Source: Methanotrichaceae archaeon (GTDB lineage Archaea; Halobacteriota; Methanosarcinia; Methanotrichales; Methanotrichaceae). Taken from it: a stretch of 64,000 bases of DNA. The notes beneath the pieces were generated by a model. That model worked only from the letters and a program-made list of their open reading frames with translations, ran no database searches and was not told where the DNA came from. Both the position numbers and the translations under genes were made by a program. Numbering within the stretch: the stretch's first letter is position 1; every line of letters begins with the position of its first letter. Of this stretch, positions 26,673 through 50,391 are shown piece by piece. The DNA lies in assembly GCA_963748825.1 (NCBI GenBank), contig CAVVKN010000023.1, positions 192,001-256,000 of the forward strand, in the 5' to 3' direction.

Positions 26673-26919
26673 ATCAAGACAAATTTTTTTATAATTATCT
26701 AATGGCCTGTTTTGTGCATAGTACCTATTTCTAATATGAATTTGTAGACAAGATATCAAATTAGAATAGAAAAATCTAAATCAAAATCAAAATAATTGTG
26801 TCTTAAGACCGGTTCTTTATCCTTTAACTAGAAAAACTTACTAGTTTAGTTTGTAATCTCTTGAAAAGCCATAACTCGACAAGAGATTGGGGAAGATAGA
26901 ACAAAGGAGGCAAGAAGAT

Positions 26920-27798
26920 ATGAAAATGTTCGTAGCATTAGTGGCTTTGCTGGCTCTGGTCGGCTCAGCCATGGCATGGGATATTAGCGATACTCTAACC
27001 TATACAAATGTAAAGACGGGTTTTGAACAGGGTGGATATGGAAATGTCCTCCCCCAAGTCATTGGAACTACGAGTGGAGCATACGTCAAAGAGCCCAACG
27101 ATCTATATGCGGATATGTGGGCACAAGTCGACAACAAGCTTCTCACCGCTACCTTGGATAGATCCAACGACCAATTGAATCCCGAATATGACGCTGATGG
27201 AAATAACTTCTACACAAAGCTGACTCAGGGCGGTGCAGCTACAGTATCTGTATCCTGTAAAGATACCATCGACACAGCCCCCGAGATTACTGGAAATGCA
27301 AATGCATACCAGAATCTATGGGTTGGTGGCGAATTCGCTGAGGCTGCCGCCACATTCGACAGCAGGGCAATTGTAGGATTCTCGGATATTCCAGCTAGTA
27401 CCTATAATGGTCCCGAGACTGCTCAGCACTTTGTCGTCACAGATGTTAAGTCTGCCAGCTCTTCTATCGATGCAAGCGCACATGGATCAGGCCTGTTTAA
27501 TACTGCTGATATGGGCGTCAAGGTAACTGCCGACATCCAACAGAATTACGTAGGCAGCGGATGGGCAGAGCCAACATACTCCGGTGGTATCAATATGTGG
27601 GCAAGCTTCGCTGGTGCCTGCGATCCGCACTGCGCGAACCCGATCATGACAAGCGTCTCTGGCACAGCAGGAACCTCAATGTTCCCAGCCAATGGAGTCG
27701 AACTGACAACCAACAGCCCATTCACCCAATCTAACGTGGGCGATGTGGCCTACTGGGGATCCAACTTCGCAACAGATCCCAACCTTCAGGGCGTATAA
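26920..27798 (+). CDS. Hypothetical exported beta-rich protein
   Basis: aggagg RBS; signal peptide MKMFVALVALLALVGSAMA; G/A/S/T/N-rich; CDPHC motif. Confidence 0.8.
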   Translation: MKMFVALVALLALVGSAMAWDISDTLTYTNVKTGFEQGGYGNVLPQVIGTTSGAYVKEPNDLYADMWAQVDNKLLTATLDRSNDQLNPEYDADGNNFYTKLTQGGAATVSVSCKDTIDTAPEITGNANAYQNLWVGGEFAEAAATFDSRAIVGFSDIPASTYNGPETAQHFVVTDVKSASSSIDASAHGSGLFNTADMGVKVTADIQQNYVGSGWAEPTYSGGINMWASFAGACDPHCANPIMTSVSGTAGTSMFPANGVELTTNSPFTQSNVGDVAYWGSNFATDPNLQGV

Positions 27799-27845
27799 GT
27801 AGCGGCAAAGACTGTGAAAATGCAAAATAGAATGGATGGAGGTGC

Positions 27846-28577
27846 TTGAAAATGCGGATGGCTCTGATTGTGCTGATTGGGATAGTGGCATTAGCTGGCC
27901 AATCTAGCGGGATCACCCAGACGAGCGCCTTCACCAATTCTTTTTTGGTGAGCAGTTTTTCTGAAGTAGCAGCATCAAGGACCATATCAGAAAGTTCTGT
28001 AACATCTCCAGATCTGAATTATATATCTCATGGACAGGTTGACTCCTATGTCATCCAGCCTGGCGGAGGTGCAGCAACAATAAGCCAAACTATCGAGTCC
28101 ACGGCCCAAAATTATAATGGATTAGGGGGCGGGGCATCCTTCAGCAGCAAGGTAACCGCCACCGATGTTACAAACTCATATATAATAATGAAAGGAACGT
28201 CAACTGCCGAGGTATGTAACAAACAAGATAATTCCAAGATAAAAAGCCAGACATTCGGAATGGGTATGGCCAAACCCGGAGAAGGCGAATATTCCTTTGA
28301 AGTGAATGGGGCTCAAAATACCAAATCTGACATGGTCCCAGCGCTTGCAACAATAGTGGATTACACTAAATTGCTTGATAAAGAGTTAATTGTGGCCTTT
28401 GAGCAGATACCAACGGAGTTTGAGCAGACCCCAGATATTCTGCAGCAGGAAGTCAACTTTAATTACGCTACGTCCAATAATCAGCCAACCTATTACGGCT
28501 ACGACTTTACGAGCACGATCGCAGTTGATGATACTATGTGTAGCTCCTCTATGAGCCTCTCGCATATAAATTATTAG
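27846..28577 (+). CDS. Hypothetical exported protein
   Basis: ggaggtg RBS; signal peptide; S/T-rich. Confidence 0.75.
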   Translation: MKMRMALIVLIGIVALAGQSSGITQTSAFTNSFLVSSFSEVAASRTISESSVTSPDLNYISHGQVDSYVIQPGGGAATISQTIESTAQNYNGLGGGASFSSKVTATDVTNSYIIMKGTSTAEVCNKQDNSKIKSQTFGMGMAKPGEGEYSFEVNGAQNTKSDMVPALATIVDYTKLLDKELIVAFEQIPTEFEQTPDILQQEVNFNYATSNNQPTYYGYDFTSTIAVDDTMCSSSMSLSHINY

Positions 28578-28584
28578 GACTATT

Positions 28585-29823
28585 ATGAGAACAATATTAA
28601 TTGGAATTCTGCTATTAACATCGTGCGTGATGTGCACTGATGCTCATATAAGTCTGCAGATGAGTTATTATAACTCTGATGACGATATGTCCATGTCCCT
28701 AGAAGGCGCAAACCTGGCCTTTGAATCATTTTGTACCATTGAGCCCCATTCGCTGACATATAGCAATGGTGGCTCATCCAAACAACCACAGGCAGAGTAT
28801 TCCTATTCCCTTGCTCTAAATGGGGAAACCACGTTCTCCAGTGCCGAGACGGATTCGGGAATGTTTGGCTGGAGTGGAAACGTTGATGCCGGCGGTGATC
28901 TCGGCTTAGATTCGCTAAAGGTATCTACCGTAAGCGCGGTCAAGGATGGAAGCCTCAATGTAGCCTATGGGAATGATGATCTTAAGGTCCAGGAAATGGT
29001 TGAAGCAGAGAAGTCAGGATATCAACAGCAGGCGCAACTCGGTCCAAACACAGTTTTCTCCAAAGGATCAGGTTCTACTCTCCAGCCTGTTACGGGATTG
29101 GCAGAAATTCTCTTAGCAAGCACTAAACAATCTAGCTTTGATACCACAGAGACTGAGGATGATACAGCCGAAAAAGGGGAAACATCCGAGAGTTCAAATG
29201 CTCTCAAAACAGATAGTGCTAACCTGGAAAGTTCCAATGATGCGGCAGAATCTACGACTTCCAGCGACGCTGGCAGTAACCCTGAATCGGATCCTGCATC
29301 CAGCGAAAGCCAATCTCAAGGCATAAGATACACCATTAATGTGCAGAATATCCCGAAAAATAAGCAAGGCACTATAGATTCCGATGTCATGGGACGAACG
29401 GAAGCACAATGGGCCACACAGGTCAAATCGGAATCAGATGAATATTATTCATTTGGAGTAAAGACGAGAGGCATAGGCTTTGCGCCTATTGATGAGTTAG
29501 ACATGATTGGTAAGGCAACAGGATTTCCTATTCAGATCCTCCCCCCCGGAAACGTAAAAATAAGCTACAAGGATAAAACCGATTCAGAAACGTCAGAATC
29601 TTGGGATCCTTGGGCTGAACCTTTGGAGAAATATCTAAAATTGATTGATCAACAATCACGAAATTTCGATTCTGCATATGCCGGAAAGAGTACTCCTGCC
29701 CTATGGTACTATATAGAAAATGTGTATGAGAATAAGATTCCTGCGAATATATATTATAACCCCAATCTCATGGGTTTGGAACAATATCAGCTTAGCATGG
29801 AATTCAAGGTTAGTGAAGAATAA
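28585..29823 (+). CDS. Hypothetical exported protein with an acidic S/T/E/D linker
   Basis: Signal peptide; 7 nt after the previous gene; low-complexity linker in the middle. Confidence 0.75.
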   Translation: MRTILIGILLLTSCVMCTDAHISLQMSYYNSDDDMSMSLEGANLAFESFCTIEPHSLTYSNGGSSKQPQAEYSYSLALNGETTFSSAETDSGMFGWSGNVDAGGDLGLDSLKVSTVSAVKDGSLNVAYGNDDLKVQEMVEAEKSGYQQQAQLGPNTVFSKGSGSTLQPVTGLAEILLASTKQSSFDTTETEDDTAEKGETSESSNALKTDSANLESSNDAAESTTSSDAGSNPESDPASSESQSQGIRYTINVQNIPKNKQGTIDSDVMGRTEAQWATQVKSESDEYYSFGVKTRGIGFAPIDELDMIGKATGFPIQILPPGNVKISYKDKTDSETSESWDPWAEPLEKYLKLIDQQSRNFDSAYAGKSTPALWYYIENVYENKIPANIYYNPNLMGLEQYQLSMEFKVSEE

Positions 29824-29925
29824 TTAAATCTAAATTATTTTATAGCATACCAGCATTCGCAATGGCTAAAAGGTGTGAGAAGAACGATAATTCTGATTCG
29901 AAGACTTTCTAAAAAAAATTAAACA

Positions 29926-29975
29926 GCGTGCGGCCACTCCGCCCTAAAGGACAGGGAATGCTTCGGGCCGCACGC
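29926..29975. repeat. Short palindromic element resembling an IS200/IS605-type end hairpin
   Basis: Perfect 10-bp inverted repeat gcgtgcggcc / ggccgcacgc enclosing ccgccctaaaggacaggg. Confidence 0.55.
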
Positions 29976-29999
29976 CCGGTTAGCGGGAACTCAGAAAAT

Positions 30000-30493
30000 G
30001 TCGAGTTTGGTTGTCCAAATCCCTTTGATCTGCACTATTAAAACGCCCACGAGCCCAGGCAGGGGCTCACACGTGACGGATGGAAAACCACATATTGTTA
30101 TCCGGTCACGTTAAGCCCGGATATGGGCTGTGAAAGCTGACAAGTTTATGGGACGCTTGATCCCGTGATTGAAACAGGCCAAGATCCCCCCAAATACGGG
30201 ACTGCGTCGTAGAAGGCGTATGGGAAATTATCCCATCACAGGAAAAGATCATCTGCCCATATCAGGCAGAGACGTATATGAAAAGACGAAGAGATGGAGT
30301 TTGCGGAGCAGATGTCCATAAAGATCTGATCGTTGCCACAATAACTGGCGATGATGTGCTGGGTTTCCTAGCTATTTCGTGTGGGTGTAGCAGGAGATGC
30401 ACAACCTCTGGAATGTCAACCTAGCCATTCGGGCCAAGTGGTTAGTTATCCTGCGTGTCGATTTCTGGAACCCTGCTCCGGATCCCATTTCAT
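30000..30493 (+). mobile_element. Internally deleted (non-autonomous) IS110-family element with structured non-coding ends
   Basis: ORF 30278-30424 begins MKRRRDGVCGADVHKDLIVATI (IS110 DEDD N-terminal motif) and then breaks off; hairpin-rich flanks; ends in tttcat; left boundary inferred. Confidence 0.65.
30278..30424 (+). pseudogene. IS110-family recombinase N-terminal fragment (48 codons)
   Basis: CGADVHKD with the first catalytic Asp; below the ORF-track length cutoff. Confidence 0.7.
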
Positions 30494-30607
30494 GATAACT
30501 TGAGGTTAGCCAGGTGAAACAGCGAAGAGCCAAATCTTTTACCATAATTATTATATCCTACCTGCAACAATGACTTTTAAGCAAGAAGCGTACTTCCAAA
30601 AGAATTT

Positions 30608-31678
30608 GTGCTAGATTTGAGGATAGGAGGGTGGAAAACGAGGGCATGCAAGGCGGAAATTTTGATAATAGTACTATTATTTAGCTTTGCCTTTCCCTCT
30701 GAAGGACGCATCGGGTATGATATTAAAGCTACGACAAATTCTGCCAAATGGGAGATTCACCGTTCTACTCAAGAACTTACATTTAGTTTAAATGGCTCAA
30801 CCACAGGCACAGGGAATTTTTCTAAATATATCCGAACTCAAAATTTTGGTGGCATTAACTCGGCAGAATCATCCTACTCTCTATCTGGTTCCTTATATTA
30901 TAAAGAGATGACACTTCTTAAAACACTTGAAGGTCCTGTTTCAGTCAAGACCAAACTTGTAGATATTGAGATAGAGACACCTAACGAGACCAAGATCGAT
31001 TTATCGACCGGTGACATAGAAATTCAGGAGCAATGGCCTACCTATTATGCAAATTTAAAGCAGATACGGTATCTCGGCCCGGGGATCAGAACCAAAGAGG
31101 TGTATGAGAATAATGGAGATATAATCACTAATTCCCTCAATTCGTGGAAACTCAATAAAGAGAGCCTCTTCAAAGCTTATACAAATAAGACGGTAATCCG
31201 AGTTAATCTAACTCCTTCGCGAGTATATGAAGAACGTTTTTCTAACAAGTCCAGCACATATATATTGAATCTGGAGACCACCGGCGATCATGCAAGTTTA
31301 GGTGTGGTTAAAAAGAAATATTTCACAACAGAACGATTTGGACGGCCTGAAACAGAGAGTCAAATCTACCAGGATTATGTAGGGGATCTAAACACTACTC
31401 TTAAACTAAAAGTGGACGAATCAATCATTTTAAATCCTCCTGATGATTCCTGGCTGCCTTGCTGTTCCGGCGGATATTTCGACATGATTGAAAGTGATCG
31501 CAGGCATCTGGGTGCAGACGAGATCTTCAACTGTTCCTGCAGGGCAGGTTTCAATCAAGCGAAAAGCAACAATCAAGGTGGAGTTACAGTTGTTCCATCT
31601 CCTCCCATCCAGAGATTAGCATACATTGGTCTTCCTGTACCATCGGTAGAAATGCTGCCCGTGACGGATATACATTAG
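30608..31678 (+). CDS. Hypothetical exported protein with a Cys-containing C-terminal motif
   Basis: Hydrophobic N-terminal segment; WLPCCSGGYFDM..IFNCSC. Confidence 0.7.
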   Translation: MLDLRIGGWKTRACKAEILIIVLLFSFAFPSEGRIGYDIKATTNSAKWEIHRSTQELTFSLNGSTTGTGNFSKYIRTQNFGGINSAESSYSLSGSLYYKEMTLLKTLEGPVSVKTKLVDIEIETPNETKIDLSTGDIEIQEQWPTYYANLKQIRYLGPGIRTKEVYENNGDIITNSLNSWKLNKESLFKAYTNKTVIRVNLTPSRVYEERFSNKSSTYILNLETTGDHASLGVVKKKYFTTERFGRPETESQIYQDYVGDLNTTLKLKVDESIILNPPDDSWLPCCSGGYFDMIESDRRHLGADEIFNCSCRAGFNQAKSNNQGGVTVVPSPPIQRLAYIGLPVPSVEMLPVTDIH

Positions 31679-31751: not shown

Positions 31752-33211
31752 CATCGGTCATCGGTTAAGGACATTTAGGATGGATGTTGCACAATCTTAT
31801 CCTTTTTGTACTTAGGGTATTTTTATTTCAAGTTTAGTTATATATAGGTGCTGTGATCTAATTCTCCCCTCGAAGGGGTAGCAAATGGCAACAGATTGCT
31901 CGAAAGCAGAGCAGAGCTTCATAGAGAAAGATCTATGCACGATGTTTTCGCCTGAATTTTTAAGGAAGACCGCAATAGATACTGGTTTAATAAAACGTGA
32001 ACGCAAGATAGATGCAGTCGTCATGTTTTGGGTTTTGACTTTGAGTTTTGGGGTCCGTCTTCAGAGAACACTAGCCAGTCTGAAACGAAGTTATGAGAAA
32101 GAAGCTCACGAGAAATTAAGCGATAGTAGCTGGTATTACCGCTTTACTCCAGAACTCGTTGCTTTTCTCAAAGCATGCGTTATTCATGGAATTGAATACC
32201 TTGCCAAAGAACAAAGCCATAATTTTAACAAAAAATTAGTAAAGTTCCAAGATGTATTGATTCAGGATAGTACGATAGTTCGGCTTCATACAAGTCTGGC
32301 CAAACTCTATCCGGCTGCTCGATCCAAAGGAGAAGCTGCCGGCCTTAAGATCGCGGTTCTTGTCAGTGCAGTTGGAAACACCCCGGAAAGCATTTCTATA
32401 TACAAAGAACGCACTAATGAGCTTAAGACCATCAGAGTCGGCCCCTGGATAAAAGGGAAAATTTTGCTTATCGATCTTGGTTTCTATAAATATCAACTAT
32501 TTGCAAGAATAGCTGAGAACGGTGGATTTTTTGTCTCTCGATCAAAGGATAACTCAAATCCGTTAATTATAAAGGTAAATCGAGCCTGGAGAGGCCAGAG
32601 CATAGATGTGTGCGGGACATACCTCCAAGATGTATTGCCGAAGCTTCAAAGACAAATTTTAGATGTAGATGTTGAAGTCTCCTTTAAGCGCAGAGCCTAC
32701 AACGGAGTAAGAAGACCGGATACACATCGATTTCGTCTTGTTGCGATCTACAATGACGAAGATGAGAAATATCATACATATATTACTAATATTAATTCAG
32801 ATATTCTTGAGCATGAAGATATCGGAAAGCTTTACGGAGCTCGGTGGGATATCGAATTGATGTTTAAAGAGCTGAAGAGCAGGTACGCACTTGATGCCCT
32901 TGGTACAAAAAATCCTCAGATAATTGAAGCTTTTATTTGGGTTGCTATTTTAACGCTTCTTGTTAGCAGGAGAACATATTTCAATGTGAGAAAAATTCAT
33001 AAAGGTAAAAATATAGTGAGATTTACTCAGCTTAGGTGGAGCATTATTTTCGCAGAAAATGCGGATGATCAGCTAACGCTCCTTCTGCGATATATGGGAA
33101 TAACAAGGACTTTGGAAACTATAGCAGGGGTTTATGATAGTCAAGCCCTTGATCCGCACGTCAACCGTGAACGCTTTAGAGCTGAGTGGTGGGCTTAACC
33201 GATGACCAATG
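31752..33211 (+). mobile_element. Complete IS4-family (ISH8-like) insertion sequence
   Basis: 18-bp TIRs catcggtcatcggttaag / cttaaccgatgaccaatg (1 mismatch); 10-bp TSD tataagagta at 31742-31751 and 33212-33221. Confidence 0.92.
31885..33198 (+). CDS. IS4-family DDE transposase
   Basis: IQDSTIVRL, LLIDLGFY, YGARWDIELMFKELKS (YREK signature). Confidence 0.9.
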   Translation: MATDCSKAEQSFIEKDLCTMFSPEFLRKTAIDTGLIKRERKIDAVVMFWVLTLSFGVRLQRTLASLKRSYEKEAHEKLSDSSWYYRFTPELVAFLKACVIHGIEYLAKEQSHNFNKKLVKFQDVLIQDSTIVRLHTSLAKLYPAARSKGEAAGLKIAVLVSAVGNTPESISIYKERTNELKTIRVGPWIKGKILLIDLGFYKYQLFARIAENGGFFVSRSKDNSNPLIIKVNRAWRGQSIDVCGTYLQDVLPKLQRQILDVDVEVSFKRRAYNGVRRPDTHRFRLVAIYNDEDEKYHTYITNINSDILEHEDIGKLYGARWDIELMFKELKSRYALDALGTKNPQIIEAFIWVAILTLLVSRRTYFNVRKIHKGKNIVRFTQLRWSIIFAENADDQLTLLLRYMGITRTLETIAGVYDSQALDPHVNRERFRAEWWA

Positions 33212-33292: not shown

Positions 33293-34000
33293 TTGAGGGA
33301 GACTATCTTATTAATTGTTCTAATCTGCTGCACGACTCTCTGTTTCAATACCATTGCTCAAAGCGTTCCAGAAAAGGCTGCCCAACCAATGAGTTTCAGC
33401 GCTCAGGATACAATTGAGAAAACTGTTAAGCAAGTAAGTGCCGCAGCATCCGCATCCACAACCGGCCCCAAAGTGGCCCTAACTGTTCTAAAGCAGGATA
33501 GCGGGATGAATTTTTCTGATATGAACTATACATTGTTCTCGGCGGTAAGTGAGTTCGGATTGGCTGGCGTGGGAATAGGAGAAGTTGTAAAGTTCAACGC
33601 GCCCAAGCTCGAGTGGAAGCTTAAAGGGGTGCAGATACTGGGATGGAGCGGATTCAATAATACTACGAAGCAATTCCCTGCCGATAGAATGTTCCTTGTT
33701 GAAATTAGGGACAGTAACGGAGATTTGCTTTACAGATTCAACGATATTCAGAATATTTACTATGCATCCGCTACTGGACCAGTAGCTCATAAATTTGACG
33801 TACCAGCTTTGCCGGTGATTGGAGACTTTTTTGTAGTCTTCTATGACAGAGCTTCGATGGGCCTCGGAATGGAATTGAATAATGCAACTGGAAATTCTTA
33901 CTTTATCGTAAACGGTCAGCTGATTCCTGCCGAATTCAAGAATGCGAAAACAAATGAGACCCAAAAGGTCAACTGGTTGATCCGGGCTGTTGGCGAGTAA
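33293..34000 (+). CDS. Hypothetical exported protein
   Basis: aggtga RBS; signal peptide; beta-sandwich-like C-terminus ending NWLIRAVG. Confidence 0.7.
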   Translation: MRETILLIVLICCTTLCFNTIAQSVPEKAAQPMSFSAQDTIEKTVKQVSAAASASTTGPKVALTVLKQDSGMNFSDMNYTLFSAVSEFGLAGVGIGEVVKFNAPKLEWKLKGVQILGWSGFNNTTKQFPADRMFLVEIRDSNGDLLYRFNDIQNIYYASATGPVAHKFDVPALPVIGDFFVVFYDRASMGLGMELNNATGNSYFIVNGQLIPAEFKNAKTNETQKVNWLIRAVGE

Positions 34001-38303: not shown

Positions 38304-38475
38304 GCGCTCTGTGCCTGCGGTGGTGGTAGTATCGTCAGCTATCTGTCATAACAAGCAGCTAACGACGTTTCAATTGCAGAATCCACAGAGTTCACAGAAG
38401 AACGCACAACGAGAAAAACTAACAACTATGAAACGATAGTAACTTGAGGTTAGCCACGGGAGATTGCGAAGTGAC
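38304..38475. repeat. Degenerate copy of the dispersed ctctgtg/cacagag palindromic MITE-like repeat
   Basis: Aligns by eye with 50164-50391 and 42641-42780. Confidence 0.75.
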
Positions 38476-38817
38476 AGAATTTTCGAGCTTGAACAACGGA
38501 AATCACAGGGCATCATTACATAAAAGATCCGTGTTAACCGGCATATATAAAAAATAATAATTATTATGTTTTTTGATATTTTTACTTATTTTACAATTTT
38601 AGAATTTGTGTGGTTTGTCCCCCCTTACGAATGAGCAGAAGAATTCCATTTTTCTGGATCTATGAATTAGAATAGATATTATCATCACGCTGAATGAATA
38701 TCTTCACGCAGTTGCATATTTATAGCATAATCTTAAGGCAAAAACAATAAGTAGTCGAGAAATAAACTATTTATATCATAGGGTATTTCTTATACCTAAA
38801 AATAGAATGAGGTCATT

Positions 38818-50163: not shown

Positions 50164-50391
50164 GGCTCATCGAGGTATTGAGTGGGTAATAATAAAGTCC
50201 TCTGTGAGTCCTCCGTGCGCTCTGTGTCTCCGTGGTGGTGTTTCGTATTCGAAAACCATTTGGCTATAACCAGTGGCTAACAACGTTTCAACCACAGAGG
50301 CACAGAGTTCACAGAGTACGCACAGAGCGACTAACTAACAACTGGAAAACCATAGTAACCGAGGGTAGCCACGGGAAAATGGCGAAGAGCC
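50164..50391. mobile_element. MITE-like element, most complete copy of the palindromic repeat family
   Basis: Terminal ggctcatcg / cgaagagcc inverted repeats; near-duplicated A-rich flanks (caaaaaag / aaaaaaag); long internal ctctgtg/cacagag palindrome. Confidence 0.7.

Follow-up and report, generated by a model that had tools for sequence, protein, structure and literature searches.

This study concerns a short intergenic stretch, positions 29914-30531, of a 64,000-nucleotide piece of contig CAVVKN010000023.1 from a Methanotrichaceae archaeon (assembly GCA_963748825.1), which we call the window. When 29900-30600 is compared with its own genome (labelled G000, 25 contigs, 2.88 Mb; C2, C5, C9, C12 and similar labels denote its contigs), it falls into pieces of three repeat families that are unrelated to one another and have separate sets of genomic copies: an intergenic repeat that we name family A, a fragment of an IS110-family insertion sequence (IS), and a miniature inverted-repeat transposable element (MITE) of the ISL3 type. 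We read the middle piece, 30045-30361, as the 5' remnant, no longer mobile and in decay, of an IS110-family insertion sequence of ~1.6 kb from a Methanothrix archaeon, and put the probability of this reading at about 85%. An earlier interpretation, made from the nucleotide sequence without database searches (the sequence-only reading), had taken 30000-30531 as one MITE-like, non-autonomous IS110 derivative that lost its recombinase core, kept both ends and could be mobilised in trans.

Three repeat families in one intergenic gap

The IS110 fragment is 92-94% identical over 321-328 nt to four other copies in the genome (E values down to 1e-137), the matches running from 30035 or 30037 to 30357 or 30361 at 94% for three copies on C12 and at 92% for one on C5; a partial copy on C12 is 95% identical to it over 187 nt. 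Altogether, the source genome holds four full parent copies (C5:28195-29797; C12:110195-111797, 112454-114056 and 114195-115797) and one 5'-truncated copy. The full copies are ~1.6 kb long and consist of a 232-233-nt non-coding left end, an open reading frame (ORF) of 439 amino acids and only ~42 nt past the stop codon. The 439-amino-acid product matches DEDD_Tnp_IS110 (PF01548, 1.9e-21), Transposase_20 (PF02371, 1.6e-25) and the NCBIfam model for the IS110 family RNA-guided transposase (NF033542, 256 bits at a cut-off of 140); its relationship to the IS621 transposase of known structure is distant (E 1.1e-8 to 8wt6_A). Since relatives at 87-94% protein identity come from metagenome-assembled genomes of Methanothrix, Methanotrichaceae or Methanosarcinales, the host is an archaeon, as had been supposed from the sequence.

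The window keeps positions 1-317 of the element, i.e., the left end and 28 codons of the recombinase gene, and the similarity stops at 30361. The 48-codon ORF reported at 30278-30424 is there and begins MKRRRDGVCGADVHKDLIVATITGDDVL as described; the loss of similarity placed after ~27 codons is also real, although it is 28 codons that match the full-length recombinases. The 48-residue peptide itself has no Pfam match even at E<=10 and so trivially fails the DEDD_Tnp_IS110 profile that had been proposed as its test. The assignment of the peptide and its upstream region to IS110 nevertheless holds, because the fragment, including ~230 nt upstream of the ORF, matches at the DNA level full copies whose product does match this profile. 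PF01548 and PF02371 are both present in the parent copies and absent from the window fragment, and the descent of the latter from the IS110 family is seen in its nucleotide homology to full members and in its sequence-specific site without a long duplication.

The other end of the element is missing. In the full copies the right end reads ...GTGGTTTTCCATGGGAAA / ...GTGTGGTTTTCCATGGGAAAC, and in the circle junction expected of them its terminus ...CCATGGGAAA would be joined to CGCCCATGAG...; no match to this right end at <=3 mismatches exists in the 64-kb window, and in a BLAST search with the full element 30035-30361 was the sole match on this contig. A 9-12-bp inverted repeat between the left end (30080-30091 in the window) and the right end, which covaries between element families, has thus lost its partner here. 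The fragment does not possess two ends that could be joined at a core and, in the absence of a right end, it cannot be excised as an IS110 element. The full-length IS110 with shared ends that the sequence-only reading called for does exist in the same genome, but it shares the left end only.

What had been described as the second IS110 end, ~130 nt of nested stems downstream of the ORF, is the interior of an ISL3-type MITE unrelated to IS110. Positions 30365-30531 are 81% identical to C16:6930-7096, with shorter matches on C9, C5, C2 and C24. The 3' end of the MITE carries a conserved 37-nt module, the outer part of which is GGCTCTTCGCTATTT in reverse complement, and its left end is a degenerate copy of the same terminal repeat. 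With <=2 mismatches allowed, GGCTCTTCGCTATTT has 36 genomic occurrences, and it also bounds a full element on C5, two ORF pieces of which match DDE_Tnp_ISL3 (5e-63), HTH_Tnp_ISL3 and Zn_ribbon_ISL3. In keeping with ISL3-derived MITEs, the terminal inverted repeat of 30362-30531 is therefore shared with a full ISL3 element of the same genome, and the window MITE has the terminal repeats without a transposase ORF. Its sister copy on C9 is flanked by AAAAATTT, the 8-bp duplication of the family; the window copy has ATGTGCTG on the left and AAATCTTT on the right and hence no duplication, which points to a rearrangement at its border. The two superfamilies also meet elsewhere in the genome, where the C5 IS110 copy (locus L021, C5:26988-29997) sits inside a full ISL3 element, between the 5' terminal region of the latter and its transposase gene, itself split in two ORFs. 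More ISL3-type terminal-repeat modules, which are ends of other MITEs of this superfamily, lie at 38440-38476 and 50377-50391 of the window.

Because the supposed right end is an ISL3-type MITE, the boundaries that had been predicted from it are wrong, and so is the predicted circle junction, in which cccatttcAT was to be joined to gtcgag. A mobilisable mini-IS110 with both ends is accordingly ruled out at this locus by the identity of its downstream part, which has copies and terminal repeats of its own, and by the missing right-end motif. The left end and the first 28 codons are indeed present at 92-94% identity to active-looking copies, and the family can produce such derivatives: in another genome a 395-bp element located in a CRISPR (short palindromic repeats, clustered and regularly interspaced) repeat, G087:C16:171-565 (L089), has left-end positions 1-217 fused to the final ~199 nt of the element, right end included, and might at most be a candidate for mobilisation in trans. 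However, this derivative is itself single-copy, the joined form being found once in one of 59 genomes of the genus; the combination 30045-30531 has no second copy in the genome of the window, and the claimed start at 30000 falls within family A. We therefore consider the two-ended model very improbable for the window.

Family A is a ~310-nt intergenic repeat, widespread in the genus, with two strong hairpins (CCCCACCCTAAAGGGATGGGG, CCCCAACCTGAAGGTTGGGG). The genome has five long matches to it at 74-81% and three that are shorter or weaker (70-89%). The full copies (C5:46509-46820, C18:16671-16980, C9:238943-239230, C23:288127-288430 and C11:41770-42120) extend ~180 nt past the point at which the window copy stops, so that the 3' part is missing from the latter. 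The first 45 nt of the element proposed earlier belong to this repeat, the true left boundary of the IS110 fragment being 30045, and the TATA-like tattaaaa noted at 30036 is actually the insertion target ATTAAAAC (30037-30044). The loop of the first family-A hairpin, CCCTAAA followed by GGGATGGGG, is also the cognate target of one class of IS110 elements (type 3, see below). Rfam gave nothing significant in 29700-30800 (HgcC, 17.8 bits at a gathering score of 50, E 0.17, minus strand), and in four loci representing family A, the MITE and a full IS copy it gave only CRISPR-DR7 (36 bits vs 37) and no bridge-RNA family.

The anatomy of the locus suggests the following history. A full element, steered by its own bridge RNA, would have inserted at the near-cognate site ATTAAAAC within a family-A repeat. 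A later rearrangement tied to the ISL3-type MITE, which may have been a deletion next to it or the outcome of two MITE copies recombining, would then have removed the element from position 318 onward together with its right end, as well as the 3' part of the family-A repeat, leaving the IS110 fragment abutting the MITE inverted repeat without target duplication. No pre-insertion or pre-deletion state was found with a 2.7-kb query in 58 other genomes of the genus, nor was the empty site that the sequence-only reading had hoped for: the matches are confined to the three repeats (query positions 1003-1639) and in no case include the flanking genes.

Each of the three pieces exists in several copies and the assembly is in 25 contigs, and one may ask whether their juxtaposition arose during assembly of the metagenome bin through repeats. 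This explanation is even less credible than the two-ended model. DNA contig X14 (20,231 nt), from another sample, spans 29600-30900 in one piece with the same arrangement, showing 39 differences and two gaps over 1,301 nt, which corresponds to a strain that is ~97% identical, and RNA-library contig X19 covers 29600-30531 unbroken. The arrangement is therefore not an assembly artefact and is older than the split of the two ~97%-identical strains.

Table 1. Features of the IS110 fragment and of the repeats on either side of it (window positions).
Feature	Position	Strand	Remarks
Family-A repeat, first ~130 nt	29914-30044	+	74-81% identity to 5 genomic copies
Insertion site ATTAAAAC	30037-30044	+	One mismatch from the cognate target ATTGAAAC
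IS110-family 5' remnant, 317 nt (probable)	30045-30361	+	92-94% identity to full copies; homology ends at 30357-30361
Non-coding left end, 233 nt	30045-30277	+	Aligned with 12 other left ends; fold z = -3.73
Subterminal inverted repeat, left copy ATGGAAAACCAC	30080-30091	+	Partner GTGGTTTTCCAT belongs to the missing right end
Predicted bridge-RNA core	30120-30263	+	Basal stem GAUAUGGGC.../...GCCCAUAUC; consensus fold
Target loop 5' strand ACAAGUUUAU, role of right target guide	30140-30149	+	Complements core + right flank (AAAC...)
Target loop 3' strand GAUUGAAAC, role of left target guide	30167-30175	+	Identical to left flank + core
Conserved hairpin UGCGUC...GAACGCG	30203-30218	+	C->G at 30215 in the window copy, one pair broken
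AUGGGAAAU, role of left donor guide	30220-30228	+	Identical to right-end terminus + core (CATGGGAAA)
Chimeric 48-codon ORF	30278-30424	+	28 recombinase N-terminal codons (30278-30361), then 20 codons from the MITE
Complete ISL3-type MITE, 170 bp	30362-30531	+	Degenerate left and good right inverted repeat (...GAAACAGCGAAGAGCC)

Guides and targets of the parent family

To what sites the parent family inserts, and how, can be seen from the comparison of elements gathered from 100 genomes of the host family, with extra copies taken from multi-copy genomes; a match to the recombinase at E<=1e-30 was present in 56 of the 101 genomes, G000 counted. Two complete genomes of the genus, G036 and G049, have three and six copies, respectively. 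The left end contains GATTGAAAC (30167-30175 in the window). ATTGAAAC directly precedes the full copies on C12, ATTCAAAC the C5 copy and ATTAAAAC the window copy. Among elements that carry the same guide as the window, GAUUGAAAC (type 1), 18 of 22 left flanks end in ATTGAAAC, and the remaining four, ATTCAAAC, ATATGAAAC, GATGAAAC and the ATTAAAAC of the window, carry one or two differences from it. With a different guide, the flank is different as well: type 2 (guide GGCUAAAAC) has GGCTAAAAC as its left flank in 7/7 loci, and type 3 (guide CCCUAAAC) has CCCTAAAC in two loci and CTCTAAAC in the third. The opposite strand of the same loop complements the right flank, CCUUUU facing AAAGG(A/G) in type 3 and GUUU facing AAAC in type 1. 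Exact matches of 8-10 nt between left guide and left flank are found in most of 31 loci, which fall into ~15 guide classes. When nine representatives are cross-tabulated, leaving aside one further, mis-extracted row, the cognate left-guide matches are 6-9 nt long and the non-cognate ones mostly 3-5 nt, with a maximum of 6.

Distant elements, with 40-47% protein identity, have the same scaffold and follow the same guide logic, the cognate matches being 6-10 nt long across families X, Y, Z, W and further classes. Family Y has AGUGAAAC, the same as its left flank AGTGAAAC, together with CCGCCGUUU, the complement of AAACGGCGG, and AUGCGAA, which is identical to its right end CATGCGAA; in family X, CACAAAGA matches the left flank and AUCUGUGAC complements GTCACAGA; in family Z, the left flank is matched by CAUAGAAAG, and AUGGCAA equals CATGGCAA. 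Loci L038 and L041 combine (C)UGCGGAAAC, which matches the left flank, with CCCACAUU, complementary to AATGTGGG, and AUAGGAAU, equal to the right end CATAGGAAT, and at L036 UAGUCAAAC matches the left flank and CGCAAUUU complements AAATTGCG. A further pair of donor guide and right end is AUGUGAA/CATGTGAA. The segment directly 3' of the invariant hairpin UGCGUC...GAACGCG equals the right-end terminus plus the core in every family, and thus it serves as the left donor guide. As to the right donor guide, AUAUGGGC was considered for this role and rejected: it is invariant while the donor varies, and it is better read as part of the basal stem. At L038, L041 and other loci, the left target and left donor guides continue for 1-2 nt past the core and there follow the non-cognate partner instead (for example, a guide ...GGAAAC opposite a target ...GGAATG, where the left end of the donor starts with AC), which recalls the handshake guides of IS621.

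The mechanism shown by this comparison would work as follows. The left end of the parent would be transcribed in sense into a ~145-nt RNA closed by a basal stem, of which one internal loop would hold two guides. The 5' strand of the loop would complement the core and the right flank. Its 3' counterpart has the same sequence as the left flank and the core and therefore would pair with the bottom DNA strand. The segment right after the second, invariant hairpin would recognise the donor. The core is AAA or AA. A left target in the same sense on one loop strand and the complement of the right target on the other is the arrangement expected of a bridge RNA. The proposal that the left end encodes a bridge-RNA-like guide is thus borne out by the covariation of guides and flanks which the sequence-only reading had suggested looking for, and which extends over ~15 guide classes.

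The predicted guide RNA scaffold and the state of the window copy

The hairpins reported upstream of the ORF are real. The 233-nt left end folds at -83 kcal/mol, compared with -65.6 +/- 4.7 for shuffled sequences (z = -3.73), and none of 200 shuffles is as good. The window left end and 12 others, aligned with a mean column identity of 88%, were used to derive a consensus structure with RNAalifold, and pairs were then counted on 24 elements. The hairpins are conserved among homologous left ends: 89.8% of cells are paired, versus 28-47% when the partners are slid by 1-3 columns. In the basal stem GAUAUGGGCAGUGA/UCAUCUGCCCAUAUC A:U is exchanged to G:C in three sequences, and the GGCU/AGCC stem that closes the target loop shows exchanges of U:A to C:G and of C:G to U:A. 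The distal hairpin lies between the two guide strands, and the second hairpin is invariant. U-G pairs are kept in 24/24 elements at alignment columns 86:102 and in 17/24 at 30:46, which indicates that the RNA is the sense strand. Helix 5, past the donor guide, is paired in just 62.5% of cells and helix 3 is partly misaligned; we do not rely on these two helices as support.

Among the 13 left ends, the window copy has seven private substitutions, five of them in paired columns, and all five break pairs that are kept in 12/12 other left ends. In the alignment of 24 elements, the window copy alone breaks the interior pairs 10:144 (U-U, 30129), 16:62 (A-C, 30135) and 89:99 (G-G, 30215), which are standard in the other 23 elements, through its specific variants 30129T, 30135A and 30215G; the unpaired cells of other sequences lie at helix ends or are due to a register shift. 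Helix 4, the hairpin at 30203-30218, is paired in 99.2% of cells, the window copy being the sole unpaired one. Lacking both recombinase and right end, and damaged in its scaffold, the fragment is best taken for a relic, most likely one without function.

Several observations weigh against this reading, or against parts of it. The breaking of stems is partly a circular argument, as it was the majority of these very sequences that gave the structure, and changes on both sides of a pair are thin within the scaffold (seven cells, three pairs), its near lack of variation leaving few compensatory changes. A search of six families for complements of the left-end start, to either side of the conserved hairpin, did not yield a consistent right donor guide. 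The order of events at the locus is only inferred, given that neither an empty site nor an intermediate state was found. Finally, the window has all three identified guide segments (30140-30149, 30167-30175 and 30220-30228) undamaged and with the same sequence as in the full copies, the arrangement of the fragment is kept in a related strain, and RNA-library contigs X19 and X20 bridge the junction of family A and the left end, which together make a residual trans-acting guide or a read-through role conceivable.

It could then be that the fragment is a working orphan guide gene, transcribed, e.g., by read-through from the + strand gene at 28585-29823, and that its bridge RNA is loaded onto the recombinase of the full copies, adding to or competing with their own. 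Apart from the intact guides and the retention of the locus in the ~97%-identical strain, this would agree with RNA-library contigs of two studies that run from the upstream gene into the left end, and it has a precedent in ISPpu9 and ssr9 of Pseudomonas putida, described in the accessible part of PMC12288879 as separate RNA modules of an IS110-family element. However, three interior pairs of the scaffold are broken in this copy alone, and the same guide is already supplied by five other copies, so that there is no apparent selective reason to keep it. Nor do the contigs speak for transcription: all four runs (X14, X19, X20 and X24) are contigs which show neither strand, RNA ends nor expression level, DNA may be present in the RNA libraries, and the parts left uncovered in X20 and X24 are uninformative. 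No archaeal promoter could be assigned by eye. We thus regard a working orphan guide as unlikely, and a relic remains our preferred reading of the fragment.

Of these contigs, the one from X20 (mean depth 849) begins within the upstream gene and ends at 30263, where the predicted basal stem also finishes. As this comes from contig data of one study and X19 runs on, we do not count it as an RNA 3' end.

The surroundings of the locus are rich in mobile elements: 1.3 kb downstream, at 31885-33198, there is an intact-looking gene of a 437-amino-acid DDE_Tnp_1 (IS4/IS5-type) transposase. A run of + strand ORFs of 303, 243, 412, 356 and 235 amino acids occupies 26887-31678 and 33293-34000; four of these, the 303-amino-acid ORF being left out, had no match in Pfam. 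Their N-termini are hydrophobic and they may encode secreted or surface proteins. For the region of these ORFs, no counterpart at the DNA level was found in the 58 other genomes of the genus.

CRISPR repeats as targets, and known relatives

The cognate target ATTGAAAC is the 3' end of the host CRISPR repeat, which ends in ...AAGGATTGAAAC. An array at C12:108656-118869 consists of 55 repeats (Rfam CRISPR-DR7, 36 bits), and 55 of the 81 genomic GATTGAAAC sites fall in it. Since the guide of the main lineage, GAUUGAAAC, is the 3' end of the CRISPR repeat, intact copies pile up in arrays: the C12 array holds three full and one 5'-truncated copies (L002-L004, L006), and six more insertions (L023, L025, L026, L068, L072 and L073) are found in arrays of four other Methanothrix genomes. 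Each of these six loci outside G000 contains 6-18 repeat halves. In all, 9 of 22 type-1 insertions are in CRISPR arrays, all of them at the border of repeat and spacer and co-oriented with the repeat. A guide that copies its target can also receive an insertion: one C12 copy follows the internal ATTGAAAC in the left end of another copy (junction C12:110195-110199), and the same self-insertion joint (compare 30175 in the window) occurs in the X24 contig from an unrelated RNA library.

These observations allow a wider proposal, which we hold tentatively and judge to fall somewhat short of an even chance. The window remnant would come from a Methanothrix IS110 lineage whose bridge RNA is natively programmed for ATTGAAAC, the future 5' handle of the CRISPR RNA (crRNA). 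Its elements would home into arrays, where the pre-crRNA transcript and perhaps its processing, at a site 8 nt upstream of the array-borne copies, could deliver the bridge RNA and the recombinase mRNA without promoters of their own; the scaffold would have been reprogrammed ~15 times in one genus, uniting an IS110-type location with an IS1111-type seekRNA order, and the orphan in the window might yield some guide RNA by read-through. RNA-guided homing of an IS110 element into CRISPR repeats was not met in the literature searched, a search outside of which figures and supplements lay. Bridge RNAs of Methanothrix were not met in it either, and Fig. 6d and Supplementary Table 5 of PMC11208160 may hold this guide order or archaeal examples.

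The comparison with known systems draws, unless a preprint is named, on the accessible portions of the cited papers. Like IS621 (Durrant et al. 2024, PMC11208160; PMC11208158), the Methanothrix elements have a recombinase with DEDD RuvC-like and Tnp domains and a guide RNA whose gene lies in a long left end, ahead of the recombinase gene and on its strand; in both, the donor end is recognised by a second module, the guides take in the core, long terminal inverted repeats are absent and repeated host sequences are targeted. The target module of IS621 is arranged as stem, left target guide, stem loop, right target guide (Hiraizumi et al. 2024, PMC11208158), whereas the order in Methanothrix is right guide, stem loop, left guide, with the same strand specificity. 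The core is AAA/AA here and CT in IS621. Further differences from IS621 are the donor module, which here shows a left donor guide covarying with the right end and no consistent complement of the left-end start, the 9-12-bp subterminal inverted repeat, the distant protein and the archaeal host, as well as, in the window copy, the lack of recombinase and right end.

In the seekRNAs of IS1111-type elements, the two target-matching regions are in reverse order relative to the IS110 type (Siddiquee et al. 2024, PMC11187229). The Methanothrix family shares with them this reversed order and the presence of subterminal inverted repeats. However, the non-coding region and the RNA of IS1111 elements are usually downstream of the transposase, and here they are upstream, in the left end; the IS1111 repeats are 11-13 bp long and 7 and 3 bp from the ends (PMC11187229), and here the left copy of the 12-bp repeat is located 35 nt inside. 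Also unlike in IS1111, only a 6-bp repeat (CATGGG/CCCATG) flanks the core. With its RNA upstream and a right end of only ~42 nt, the family agrees with the IS1111 type in guide order alone, and so it combines an IS110-type location of the RNA with an IS1111-type order of guides.

Archaeal IS110 recombinases as such are known, 662 of them (10.1101/2024.06.21.599552). The nearest literature on a link between IS110 elements and CRISPR repeats is PMC6352166 and PMC10883916. ISC1229 of Sulfolobus is an archaeal IS110-family element whose partial, inactivated copies persist, and the CRISPR-repeat-binding protein Cbp1 binds its flank (PMC10883916). It resembles our case in the decaying archaeal remnants and in the link to CRISPR repeats and differs in belonging to another lineage; the accessible portion of PMC10883916 contains no analysis of a guide RNA or target. 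For IS1000A/B, an IS110-family element of Thermus thermophilus, 32 bp of the annotated IS end are identical to host CRISPR repeats (PMC6352166), which suggests that this IS110-family element is associated with CRISPR repeats. The element is, however, bacterial, and in the accessible portion of that paper the identity is read as CRISPR having recruited the sequence and not as RNA-guided homing, with no guide identified.

In itself, the IS110-family locus in the window is ordinary. The parent family, which belongs to the known bridge/seek-RNA kind, is moderately interesting and has a permuted guide order and a CRISPR-repeat target. The locus illustrates that an intergenic gap which looks "empty" can consist of scars that three mobile elements have left side by side, and the attractive interpretation of it as a mobilisable mini-IS110 has been corrected. 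The intact copies provide a natural series of pairs of bridge-RNA guides and targets, with ~15 guide classes in one archaeal genus, a scaffold delimited at ~145 nt, a guide order that departs from the IS621 model and, for the main lineage, a cognate site that is the end of the host CRISPR repeat.

If experiments bear this out, archaeal bridge recombinases would join the set of programmable recombinases, and the two target guides would be permutable within an RNA encoded in the left end. It would also raise the question of whether insertion into an array harms the immunity of the host or just gives the element a transcribed place where it can land safely. Where guides copy their target, self-insertion into guide-coding DNA is a built-in liability, and this may help explain why remnants are common.

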